64,000 bases of DNA from NCBI GenBank assembly GCA_036785375.1, contig JAWMAR010001695.1, forward strand, positions 1-64,000, written 5' to 3'. The position numbers and the translations under genes were made by a program. This document shows positions 901 through 62,622 of the stretch, one piece after another (position 1 is the stretch's first letter; each line of letters opens with the position of its first letter). This stretch comes from Leucoraja ocellata. Its lineage: Eukaryota. Under the pieces are notes generated by a model, which did not search any database, was not told the DNA's origin, and saw only the letters and a list, made by a program, of their open reading frames with translations.

Positions 901-1027
901 CTGAAGAAGGTCTCATCCCGGAACATCAGCCATTCCTTCCCTCCAGAGATGCTGCCTGTCCCGCTGAGTTACTCCAGCATTTTGTGTCATTCTTCGGTCA
1001 ATCAGCATCTGCAGTTGTTTCCTACAC
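901..1027 (+). mobile_element. Penelope-like element (PLE) 3' terminal fragment with degenerate hammerhead motif
   Basis: ctgaagaagg...cattccttccctccagagatgctgcctgtcccgctgagttactccagcattttgtgtc...catctgcagtt, same as the terminus attached to the GIY-YIG ORF at 22818-23434. Confidence 0.75.
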
Positions 1028-1289
1028 TCTGCTGCTGCTGCTGGAGCTCTGGTCGGTCCCGGCAGGAAAGGCCGCGCCAATCCAGTAGGTAGGCCGCTGG
1101 GGGTGGGGGGGGGGGGGGAGGGGGGGGGGGGGGGGGGACTGAAAGACGGTATCCCCCTTACCGTACCCTCTTCCCCCACAAAGACATTAAAAAATACACA
1201 AAAAATGCTCTTCAAACATAACAAAAAAAAACAAAAAGATACCGGACTGAAGGCGGAGGCATCTAGCAACAGCTAGCAACAGCTAGCAA

Positions 1290-1425
1290 TCCATATGTAC
1301 GGATTAGTGAGAGTGTTAGTGGTTATGGGGATAATGGGGTTGAGAGGGAAAGTTAGATCAGCCGTGATGGAATGGCAGAGTAGACTTGATGGGCCGAATG
1401 GCCTAATTCTGCTCCCAGAACTTGT
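1290..1425 (+). mobile_element. CR1 LINE 3' end fragment
   Basis: ggttatgggg...agatcagccgtgatggaatggcagagtagacttgatgggccgaatggcctaattctgctcc, typical CR1 3' UTR hairpin. Confidence 0.7.
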
Positions 1426-1770
1426 GTTTGATTTCTGACCCTCTGGATTGAAATTAGTTTGCTTCTGCTTCCTCATTGGTAGCTCTAGGGTTTGAAGGTG
1501 ACTTGTATCCAATTTTTTAATGCTTTGTCCTATGCATGAACCCTAAACTCCCACAAATGGGGCACTCAATGCTTCAGAGAGTGTGCAGCAAAATTGCTCA
1601 TCTTGCCAATTCAATGCAACACAGGATTAAAAGCACCAGACAATGACTTTGCCTAACAATTATTCTTCATTATTAATCACAATTAGTTCAAGCAATTCAA
1701 AGAATCTCTACATAGTTTCTCACAATTACTTAACACATTAGTTTCCCGACACTTTCAGCTACAGCTCAGT

Positions 1771-2220
1771 CTTTAGAGATACAGGGTGGAAACAGGCCCT
1801 TCGGCCCACCAAGTCCGTTCCCACCAGCACAACCGTGCACAGTAGGGACAATTTACAGAAACCAATTAACCTACAAACCTCGTGTGTGAGAAAGAACTGC
1901 AGATGCTGGTAAAATCGAAGGTAGACACAAAATGCTGGAGTAACTCAGCAGGTGAAGCAGCAGCTATGGGGAGAAGGAATAGGCAACGTCGCCCATTGTT
2001 TCTCTCCATAGATGCTGCCTCACCCGCTGAGTTACTCCAGCATTTGGTGTCAACCTACAAACCTCTATGTCTTTGGAATGTGGGAAGAAACCGGAGCACC
2101 CGGAGAAAGCCCACACATGGAAAAGGTGCAAGCTCCCTGCAGACAGCATCTGTAGTCAGGATTGAACCCAGTTCTCTGGAGCCGTGAGGCAGCATCTCTA
2201 CCGCTGCGCCACCGTGCCAC
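1771..2220 (-). mobile_element. HE1-like tRNA-derived SINE, interrupted by a PLE palindrome
   Basis: Pol III A box tggcgcagcgg on minus strand, V-domain-like core, CR1-like tail gggccgaagggcctgtttcc. Confidence 0.8.
1882..2051. mobile_element. Fold-back PLE-terminus insertion
   Basis: Inverted arms; 14-bp duplication aacctacaaacctc at 1868-1881 and 2052-2065. Confidence 0.8.
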
Positions 2221-2704
2221 CCGGATATTACCCACTCTTGCGTGGAATGCAACGTGCTGGAGGTCCCCAGCAGATCACACACCATCTCTAGATGACATGG
2301 ACAAGCAACATTTCGGATCAGGACTCTTCTTCAGACCGAGCCACTCCTGATGAACTAGCCAGGGTTCGATCTTGGTCAAAGAGCAGGGGAGCAGCAGAGG
2401 GGATGCTGGGCAGGGAGGGGGGGGGTGGGGCTGGGCGGGGATGGTGGGGGGCGGTTGCGGGCAGGAAGAGAGGGTCACACAGAACTCCCAATGGAGAGAG
2501 AAAGAGAATTGCTTAAAATTTGGCATTCCTTGAGGATTTTGCAGTGGAGCAGTAACATGCACTGCTCCGATTCTTGCATCTGCAGTTCCTTGTGTCTACA
2601 GAGTTCGATCTTGGCGAGTTCTTTTCTGAGTACCTGATATATACGCGGGGCAGACAACCTGTCTGTTTGCAATGTACATTGGTACTGATATTCTGAAAAC
2701 TGGT

Positions 2705-2806
2705 GGACACAAAATGCTGGAGTAACTCAGTGGGACAGGCAGCATCTCTGGATAGACGGAATGGGTGATGTTTCGGGTCGAGACCCTTCTTCAGACCCTT
2801 TTTCAA
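2705..2806 (-). mobile_element. PLE terminal fragment
   Basis: 13-bp duplication tctgaaaactggt at 2692-2704 and 2807-2819; hammerhead-like core on minus strand. Confidence 0.75.
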
Positions 2807-3019
2807 TCTGAAAACTGGTTCTTGTTTTGAATTAGTCTCTGGAGCTTCCACATCATTGTGTAACCCCTAAACAATGTCGAACGAGGATGTGCTTGAAGTG
2901 TTTGCCCTGTCCCGTTGGAAATTGCCTACTGTTACAGAGTTTAGAGTGAAATGCTATAAGTTTAGTTTAGTTTAGAAATACAATGCGGAAACAGGCTCTT
3001 GACTTGACTTGACTTGACT

Positions 3020-3150
3020 TGAGGTCAGAGCCGGTGATGGACTGGGCAGTGGTCACAACTTTTTGCAGTCTTTTCCGCTCCTGGACGTTCAAGTTGCCGA
3101 ACCAGGCCACGATGCAACCTGTCAATATGCTCTCTACTGTACACCTGTAA
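3020..3150 (-). mobile_element. Rex1/Babar RT fragment
   Basis: YRCTVESILTGCIVAWFGNLNVQERKRLQKVVTTAQSITGSDL. Confidence 0.75.
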
Positions 3151-60732: not shown

Positions 60733-60950
60733 GTTTAGTCTAATTTAGGGATACAGGGTGGAAGCAGGCCCTTCGGCCCAACGAATCCGCACAAACTAGC
60801 GATCCCCGCACACTAACATTATCCTACACACACTAGGAACAATTTGCATTTATACCAAGCCAATCAACCTACAACCCTGTACGTCTTTGGAGCGTGGGAG
60901 AAAACCGGGGCACCCAGAGAAAACTCGCGATCACGGGGAGAACGTACAAA
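60733..60950 (-). mobile_element. HE1-like SINE, head missing
   Basis: Tail and V-core. Confidence 0.8.
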
Positions 60951-61323
60951 CATAGAAACATAGAAACATAGAAATTGGGTGCAGGAGTAGGCTCGAAGGG
61001 CCGAATGGCCTACTCCTGCACCTAATTTCTATCATTCTATGTTTCTATTCGGCCCTTCGACACAGATTTTCACACAGAGAGTGGTGAATCTCTGGAATTC
61101 TCTGCCACAGAGGGTAGTTGAGGCCAGTTCATTGGCTATATTTAAGAGGGAGTTAGATGTGGCCCTTGTGGCTAAGGGGATCAGGGGGTATGGAGAGAAG
61201 GCAGGTACGGGATACTGAGTTGGATGATCAGCCATGATCATATTGAATGGCGGTGCAGGCTCGAAGGGTCGAATGGCCTACTCCTGCACCTAATTTCTAT
61301 GTTTCTATGTTTCGAGCCTGCAC
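60951..61323 (+). mobile_element. CR1 3' fragment with rearranged extra tail copies
   Basis: FFTQRVVNLWNSLPQRVVEASS at 61067-61220; tail pieces in both orientations at 60951-61060. Confidence 0.85.
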
Positions 61324-61334
61324 TGATAAGTCTC

Positions 61335-61610
61335 CTTATCTCCTTTTCATCTCTGGCCTTTGTCCACTCGTCCCAAAACCCTAACTCTAACCACCCCTCA
61401 CCTGCATCCACCTATCACTTGACAGGCTTTGCCCCATCTCCACCTCTTTTCCAGCTTTCTCCCCCCACCACCACAATTAGGCTGAAGAAGGGTCCCGACC
61501 CAAAACGTTGCCTATCCATGTTCTCCAGGGAGGCTGGCTGGCCCGCGGAGTTACTCCAGCACTCTGTGTTCCACACAAGATTCCAGCACCTGCAGTTCCT
61601 TGCGTCAACA
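61335..61610 (+). mobile_element. PLE 3' UTR and terminus
   Basis: Pyrimidine-rich UTR, ctgaagaagggtcccgacccaaaacgtt at ~61482, then the standard tail. Confidence 0.75.
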
Positions 61611-62032
61611 CTTATAATTACGTAGCTCTTACCCTTGAGAAGGCCCCAACCTTTTGTCATTGTGCCGTCTGCTGTTCCACGCTTCCTGTGGTTTGTATCT
61701 TTCTCCTTGAAGCAATCTTTTGTAAAGCCTGTTTATCATTCAACAGTTTATCAGAGAAGTCTGTGCAGTCCTAGTCAAAATGTACCCGTATATACAAAGT
61801 AGCCTTCAATGGTGGAAGCAGTGAGATGTGGCCTGACTGTGTTCATTATTGAAAGGACTTGGTCACTGACAACACTGATGCTTCATAGACACAATATCAA
61901 CTCACTTGTGCCTCAGTTGCCAGTCAAACCCAGGGAAGAGATACACTGCATCGACTTTCTCTGTGTTCCAATCGGGAATCAGCGGGGAGATTGTTCGTTT
62001 TGCATTTGCTTATTCAACAAAAAGACACTTGG

Positions 62033-62325
62033 GATGGCACAGTGGCACAGTGGTCAAGTTGCTGCCTTACAGCGCCAGAAACCGAGGTTCGATCCTGATA
62101 TAGGTGCTGTCTGTATGTAAGTTCTCCCCGTGACCACGTGGGTTTACCCCAGGTGCTCCGGTTTCCTCCCACACTGCAAAGATGTACACAGGTTTGTAGG
62201 TATATCGGCTTTGGTAAAAGATAGTTAGTTGTCCCTAGTGTGTAGGATAGTGCTAGTGTATGGGATTGCTGGTCGGGGCAGACTCGGTGGGCTGAAGGGC
62301 CTGTTTCTGCGGTGTATCTCTAAAA
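62033..62325 (+). mobile_element. HE1-like SINE
   Basis: B box ggttcgatcc, V-core, tail. Confidence 0.8.
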
Positions 62326-62361
62326 GCTCAAAAAATAAAACTATTTTTAGCCATTAAAGTG

Positions 62362-62622
62362 GAGACAAAAGGATCTGCAGGTACTGGATTCCTGCATAGA
62401 GCCCAGTGCTGGAGTAACTCAGCGGGTCATGCAGCATCTCTGGAGGACATGGATAGGCGACGGTTTGGATCAGGACCCTTCTTCAGGGTGATTATATTAC
62501 AGGGAGAAATTTGAAGATGAGTCCCGACCCGAAACGTCACCTATCCATGTCCTCCAGAGATGCTGGCCTGACCCAGCGAGTTACTCCAGCACTTTGTGTC
62601 CTTTTGTGTGTTAACCAGCATC
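62362..62622. mobile_element. Fold-back PLE-terminus insertion
   Basis: Inverted arms with a ~25-bp central filler. Confidence 0.8.

Follow-up and report, generated by a model that had tools for sequence, protein, structure and literature searches.

Short hammerhead-bearing repeats of the skate Leucoraja ocellata as probable dead-on-arrival insertions of a Penelope-like element terminal repeat

Penelope-like elements (PLEs) are described as leaving copies with a tail at one end, inverted and truncated copies, palindromic junctions, and target duplications of 8-10 bp (PMC8557442, PMC3846280), and a CX2-5CxxC linker is given as the mark of the Neptune and Nematis clades (PMC8557442). Dispersed single hammerhead motifs are reported in thousands in frog and coelacanth, and the 56 PLE hammerhead examples aligned in the supplement (Fig. 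S3) include no cartilaginous fish (PMC4209133). PAc, a Poseidon element of the green anole, is reported to nick both target strands and to have two internal starts of reverse transcription that define its tail; it is predicted to form a dimer and uses uncleaved RNA, and its hammerhead cuts only with protein and is dispensable for insertion (PMC11167929). Animal retrozymes of the class lacking long terminal repeats (non-LTR), in the published accounts, consist of tandem repeats in which every unit holds a ribozyme (PMC7229834; bioRxiv 2026.07.22.740005). Here we analysed 64,000 nucleotides of Leucoraja ocellata (positions 1 to 64,000 of contig JAWMAR010001695.1, assembly GCA_036785375.1; hereafter the window), in which a short module with a minimal hammerhead core recurs. 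The modules are almost certainly the terminal repeat, i.e. the pseudo-long terminal repeat (pLTR) end, of an endonuclease-bearing (EN+) PLE in a batoid genome, and their insertions were probably dead on arrival, made by the element's own protein and left to decay neutrally.

An initial scan for CUGANGA already showed one repeat in many copies. An iterated profile search with a 110-column model detected 57 module arms, and the same profile gave no match in 10 dinucleotide shuffles or in the reversed window. A 132-column profile gave 56 arms, no longer including a weak, old match at 34313-34352, and the counts out of 56 given below refer to this set. The 56 arms merged into 38 insertions, 18 of which were head-to-head pairs; they occurred at about one per 1.7 kb and totaled 5,812 bp, or 9.1% of the window. 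A preliminary description of this DNA had reported about 30 elements with a ~130-nt module in two families. The repeat was real and the count slightly low, the module occurred at ~95 nt as well as ~132 nt, and the two families became about five subfamilies with 4-13% divergence, of which A and B alone had tree support. Because the tree resolved only these two, groups C, D, and E were drawn by hand; nine arms were left unassigned, and the remaining 47 were used in the subfamily and substitution analyses. A literature search, with subscription journals, Repbase, and Dfam outside its range, found no paper on this skate/ray PLE family, which is probably already catalogued in Repbase or Dfam.

The derivation from PLE termini, proposed in the preliminary description, was borne out by a GIY-YIG endonuclease that ended directly upstream of two modules. 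A six-frame motif search located minus-strand fragments of GIY-YIG near 26323, 23381, and 21877, and the ends of this domain directly preceded the modules at 22917 and 21732, both on the minus strand. At 23423-22812 (minus strand), the endonuclease domain (23133-23423) was followed by a linker of ~215 nt and then by the module, and at 21913-21602 (minus strand) the last endonuclease codons (~21851-21913) were followed by a linker rich in pyrimidines and then by a family B core that was intact. A 97-amino-acid endonuclease fragment showed 62-70% identity with four proteins of Mobula, Leucoraja, and Rhinoraja. The Pfam match of the window endonuclease fragment to GIY-YIG was weak (E = 0.026), and the top atlas clusters were GIY-YIG. 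In the relative P0001, a reverse-transcriptase end with a YIDD motif, the CX2-5CxxC linker, and the endonuclease were joined. The linker was found in relatives P0001 and P0003, and the window fragments begin after its position. A search of solved structures with P0001 gave nothing useful. Proteins P0002-P0004 were skate gene models in which the endonuclease fragment was fused to unrelated proteins, including a neuromedin-U receptor; these fusions are probably annotation chimeras.

Target duplications of 8-14 bp were present at 13 of the 38 loci, compared with 1.4% for mismatched flanks. The arms ended near column 92-100 or near column 132-140, that is, at two 3' ends 35-40 nt apart, and this difference is the PLE tail. 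Among 20 pairs of neighboring arms within 60 bp, 18 were head-to-head, one was tail-to-tail, and one was on the same strand. One tailed and one untailed arm were combined in 16 of the 18 head-to-head pairs (p = 0.0007), or in 15 (p = 0.004) if the borderline arm at 62511 is scored as tailed. The distance between mates was smaller than the distance to the median other arm in all 18 pairs, and mates belonged to the same subfamily in each of the 14 pairs with both arms assigned. This kinship of mates would also be expected if a single complementary DNA (cDNA) snapped back at a palindrome in the hammerhead region and copied itself, the short arm reflecting the point at which the intermediate was resolved. 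Junctions symmetric on palindromes, seen in four of the 18 pairs (ACGT, stem II, and twice CAG-W-CTG), point in the same direction, and self-priming at palindromes has been proposed for a rotifer Penelope (PMC3846280). However, the remaining junctions were asymmetric or had spacers of 3-23 nt, and the few variants shared between mates (0-5) were also compatible with two templates of one subfamily and did not separate the two routes. We regard fold-back as a serious alternative for the pairs, although the less likely one.

Each of the 18 pairs, if transcribed, would by folding form a hairpin of 160-260 nt with 70-175 kcal/mol, and such hairpins may supply double-stranded RNA for editing or for silencing by small RNAs. 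In the cluster at 32913-33458, three insertions belonged to different subfamilies and two adjacent pairs shared one 8-bp target word, which suggests insertion beside earlier copies. The features catalogued in the window were as follows.

899..1026, plus strand: solo tailed module, family A, core mutated
1885..2060: head-to-head pair (tailed and untailed), joined on the ACGT palindrome, with a 14-bp target duplication
2249..2336, minus strand: solo untailed module, catalytic bases kept
2702..2796, minus strand: solo untailed module, 13-bp target duplication, palindrome mutated
9928..10134: head-to-head pair (tailed and untailed), family A
12728..12919: head-to-head pair joined within stem II, with a 12-bp target duplication
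14300..14475: head-to-head pair (untailed and tailed)
15866..15992, plus strand: solo tailed module, G12 lost
16720..16953: head-to-head pair (tailed and untailed), both cores present, 6-nt spacer
18524..18657, minus strand: solo tailed module, 9-bp target duplication abutting the core
18925..19160: head-to-head pair (untailed and tailed)
21255..21490: head-to-head pair (untailed and tailed), 14-bp target duplication
21602..21913, minus strand: 5'-truncated PLE 3' end, family B, with endonuclease codons, pyrimidine-rich linker, core, and tail
21702..21729, minus strand: minimal hammerhead core of family B, intact and sequestered by an inverted repeat upstream
22812..23423, minus strand: 5'-truncated PLE 3' end with GIY-YIG domain, linker, core with C3 mutated, and untailed module
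25499..25605, minus strand: solo tailed module, family B, core missing
26138..26347, minus strand: third GIY-YIG fragment, interrupted at a stretch rich in CA and without an attached module
27470..27542, minus strand: old degraded solo module
32913..32997, minus strand: solo untailed module that begins at A9
33035..33212: head-to-head pair, family A, junction on a CAG-T-CTG quasi-palindrome, 8-bp target duplication
33232..33458: head-to-head pair (tailed and untailed), family B, holding the intact core 33331-33358 (minus strand)
34381..34599: head-to-head pair (tailed and untailed)
34928..35027, minus strand: solo untailed module without C3, its core directly adjoining a 9-bp target duplication
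36606..36833: head-to-head pair (untailed and tailed), junction on a quasi-palindrome, 12-bp target duplication
37958..38053, plus strand: solo untailed module with the CUGAUGA variant, a mismatch in stem II, and an 8-bp target duplication
38127..38324: head-to-head pair, old and highly diverged
40080..40158, plus strand: degraded solo module
41904..42013, plus strand: solo untailed module of family B, its core directly adjoining a 10-bp target duplication
42244..42458: head-to-head pair (tailed and untailed)
45473..45593, minus strand: solo tailed module, its core directly adjoining an 11-bp target duplication
47215..47398: head-to-head pair, family B, both arms untailed, holding the intact core 47285-47312 (minus strand)
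47969..48182: head-to-head pair (tailed and untailed), 11-bp target duplication
48445..48551, plus strand: pLTR upstream sequence and core start, cut off by long interspersed nuclear element (LINE) sequence; upstream part shared with 61395-61478
49117..49217, plus strand: degraded solo module
50132..50290: head-to-head pair (untailed and tailed), cores missing
51688..51888: head-to-head pair, both arms tailed, cores missing
52380..52476, minus strand: solo untailed module
54760..54803, minus strand: short old fragment
59627..59746, minus strand: solo tailed module
61395..61608, plus strand: tailed module, G12 lost, preceded by native pLTR sequence rich in pyrimidines
62363..62622: head-to-head pair, 23-nt spacer, right arm with a partial tail (borderline)

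The arms also shared a 5' edge. Starts at columns 1-5, just before C3 of the hammerhead, were found in 35 of the 56 arms, and in 30 of 50 once six arms with known or suspected native upstream sequence were set aside; none of these 50 started at the cleavage site (columns 31-34). All six solo copies with a clear duplication started at this edge, one of them with an 11-nt local duplication in between. Element letters were kept at columns 3, 2, and 1 in 15, 13, and 12 of 22 informative arms, respectively, and were gone at column 0. Such a sharp edge, together with the fixed length, the high density, and the division into subfamilies at the divergence given above, would also suit a short non-autonomous element similar to a short interspersed nuclear element (SINE), with its own internal promoter and moved in trans by PLE protein; non-autonomous pLTR derivatives are reported to exist (PMC8557442; bioRxiv 2026.07.22.740005). 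However, the same edge and both 3' ends recurred across all subfamilies, and the short copies had no common chimeric 5' flank. Moreover, the modules track autonomous elements, because the family B copy at 21732 and the copy at 22917 (minus strand) were joined to endonuclease ends. We consider a SINE-like origin unlikely.

The majority sequence across the arms contained the CUGANGA and GAAA boxes and NUH with the catalytic state at every position, and an extra base after A9, the G10.1-C11.1 pair, and the palindromic ACGU (15.1-16.1) were all present. This core fitted the published PLE consensus, and the extra base between A9 and G10.1 matched the PLE minimal hammerheads described there (PMC4209133), in agreement with the minimal hammerhead of the preliminary description. 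A degenerate core pattern with at most three mismatches matched 19 places, compared with none in 100 shuffles. The family B cores reported earlier at 21702-21729 and 33331-33358 (minus strand) matched the pattern exactly. The family A core as first written had an exact match in no copy, and the CUGAUGA variant at 37961 was present, with an A-C mismatch in stem II. Among the 56 arms, three cores were fully intact (21729, 33358, and 47312, minus strand, all family B), eight more kept the catalytic bases, 24 were mutated, and 21 lacked the core start; the catalytic bases were thus kept in 11 arms, and the core was broken or missing in 45. In stem II, aligned for 27 of the 56 arms, 89% of the cells were paired and changes were one-sided only, and covariation in these arms was not above that of shuffles (370/500). 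Helix I had 2 bp in the native context, and a third pair formed in four of 27 copies. Compared with 3-5 bp for the PLE minimal hammerhead, helix I reached at least 3 bp in one of seven descriptor matches; a helix I of 4 bp was seen solely in the match at 2702..2796 (minus strand), where a local duplication apparently produced it. An Rfam scan with E up to 1 gave 29 matches, all under the gathering score and none to a hammerhead family; the microRNA matches among them were inverted pairs and other palindromes.

Folding indicated that the three intact cores, which pair with a partner arm or with an inverted repeat upstream, for this reason need 12-38 kcal/mol to reach the ribozyme shape. Cofolding of these three copies gave -13 kcal/mol for the hammerhead dimer and -21 to -32 kcal/mol for alternatives, a weak comparison in that nearest-neighbor folding leaves out tertiary contacts and protein. 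In the family B copy joined to an endonuclease end, the bases just upstream of the core (21729-21741, minus strand) were an inverted repeat of it and would sequester it, perhaps as an off state built into the element or else as an artefact of the junction. Non-CpG substitutions were as frequent at catalytic positions (23/345, 6.7%) as at flanking ones (176/2627, 6.7%), which indicated that the genomic copies decay neutrally. Between subfamilies, one of 11 catalytic columns was variable, compared with 16 of 61 flanking columns (p = 0.20). The idea of a genome seeded with ribozyme modules did not hold: with three of 56 cores intact and these predicted to misfold, a helix I of 2 bp, and catalytic bases decaying like their flanks, almost no genomic copy should be able to cleave. 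The hammerhead would be inherited from the parent element, in which it was probably weakly active as a dimer with the help of protein.

The same results bear on the retrozyme-like mobilisation suggested in the preliminary description, in which active ribozyme modules would spread as self-cleaved, circularised RNAs. The core matched the PLE minimal hammerhead, animal retrozymes are reported to derive from pLTRs, and one cartilaginous fish genome is reported to have them (bioRxiv 2026.07.22.740005). However, the window contained no tandem units and none of the 50 arms was bounded by the cleavage site, which argues that the modules are not retrozymes, and the scarcity of intact cores, the rarity of a third pair in helix I, and the neutral decay agree with this. 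Paired cores lay on opposite strands, which excludes dimerisation within one transcript, and would fold into the hairpins described above; same-strand pairs with catalytic bases within 3 kb numbered only two and came from separate insertions. Retrozyme-like spread is most improbable.

The module is the 3' end of the element, inserted at staggered nicks with two fixed end points, and paired arms come from one event. By analogy with PAc, the GIY-YIG domain would nick both target strands, and the reverse transcriptase would prime internally on the RNA, using one or the other of two sites that lie downstream of the hammerhead; if both nicks were primed, one per site, the cDNAs would be joined at their 3' ends, giving a tailed and untailed pair. 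Priming at the 3' repeat of the transcript would give truncated copies with endonuclease ends, of which two were seen, and priming at the 5' repeat would give run-off copies of 95 or 132 nt, the form of most copies. The sharp start before the core is most likely the RNA 5' end, in which case most copies would be run-off cDNAs of the transcript's 5' terminal repeat. Since the cleavage site lies within the copied sequence, the template appears to have been uncleaved RNA. We hold the run-off and twin-priming steps with less confidence than the overall account of dead-on-arrival insertion.

More tentatively, skate and ray genomes may hold a very large record of two-nick, two-start insertion, in which a dimeric PLE particle would prime once per internal start of the 5' repeat, run off the RNA 5' end three bases before the core, and join the cDNAs into strictly asymmetric head-to-head mini-insertions; the hammerhead, its helix I worn to 2 bp, may have been retained mainly because its palindrome pairs RNAs for the dimer, and less for cutting. 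If this is true, PLE tails, inverted repeats, and solo motifs all follow from one mechanism. A single PLE has been reconstituted so far, and a literature search without subscription journals found nothing linking Penelope to twin priming. The window alone held 18 pairs with strong tail asymmetry and a sharp common 5' edge, so the whole genome should supply enough events to test twin priming against fold-back. As a ribozyme finding this is ordinary: dispersed minimal hammerheads of truncated PLEs are published for many animals, and the copies here are mostly dead. The value lies in the anatomy, since tail asymmetry and the 5' edge give countable tests of mechanism.

Several points weigh against dead-on-arrival insertion by the PLE protein along this route. 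With tblastn, no reverse-transcriptase piece and no full-length element was found in the window, and no full-length copy in a partial tandem with two pLTRs lay within it. A clear target duplication was lacking at 25 of the 38 loci, and two or three of the 18 pairs broke the tail asymmetry. The priming, run-off, and two-nick steps are carried over from an element of the Poseidon clade. The enrichment at column 1 was modest (A in 12 of 22 arms), and native copies had a pyrimidine tract and YAG 1 nt before C3, a context that we take to fit an initiator whose first base is column 1 and also a splice acceptor after the pyrimidine tract. If the splice acceptor applies, the copies would derive from RNA that was spliced or undergoing splicing, and the working ribozyme would gain a longer helix I from a short first exon. 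Both readings have precedent, because Penelope of Drosophila virilis is described as having an internal promoter with an initiator (PMC2377424) and an intron that ends at helix I (PMC4209133); its transcription start is placed further upstream (PMC4209133, PMC2377424). However, no exon-like sequence was common upstream of column 1 in the 22 informative arms, and column 0 was unbiased. The splice-acceptor origin of the edge is improbable in our judgment, and we retain the RNA 5' end as the preferred reading.

The window contained other repeats. A long LINE remnant at 27969-30972 (plus strand), presumably CR1-like, had esterase-like, endonuclease, and reverse-transcriptase frames, and shorter 3' pieces of it were found elsewhere in the window. 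A Pfam search of 150 open frames (148 of 310 candidates, from unique sequence, and two LINE frames) gave LINE-type matches only. A tRNA-derived SINE-like family of ~300 nt with 70-80% identity was represented at 7115-7435 (minus strand) and at about 20 related places, and ARAGORN recognized the tRNA-like head of a copy at 7165-7257. A near-perfect palindrome of 230 nt at 53583-53814, with a related end near 43069-43260, is probably a miniature inverted-repeat transposon. At 11055-11107 (plus strand), an interstitial telomere-like GGGTTA tract of about nine units was followed directly by a CTGATGA that failed the hammerhead descriptor.

Compared with the retrozymes, the skate modules share a type I hammerhead, the absence of coding capacity, and kinship with pLTRs, whereas the skate copies are solo or inverted and span the cleavage site. 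With the PLE minimal hammerheads of Cervera and de la Pena (2014) they share CUGANGA with an extra base, G10.1-C11.1, GAAA, ACGU without loop 3, and NUH, but helix II has 4 bp in the skate and 7-8 bp in the schistosome families described (PMC4209133). The skate helix I of 2 bp, closed by U-A or U-G, stands at the weak end of the published range, in which the 2-bp cases given are G-C (PMC4209133). Described EN+ PLEs resemble the skate family, whose relatives carry a linker of the Neptune/Nematis type, in the C-terminal GIY-YIG domain with two cysteines inside its core and the hammerhead terminal repeat, and also in the tail of 30-40 nt at one end, head-to-head copies, short target duplications, and 5' truncation (PMC8557442, PMC3846280). 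They differ in that the skate insertions are mostly of 95-132 nt with one common 5' edge, in a window without a full-length or tandem copy. PAc belongs to another clade, and its open reading frame begins at stem II, where the skate family has no conserved start codon; both, however, have two tail-defining 3' ends, and the uncleaved RNA substrate, the two-strand nicking, and the inactivity of the ribozyme without protein reported for PAc (PMC11167929) would apply to the skate family as well.

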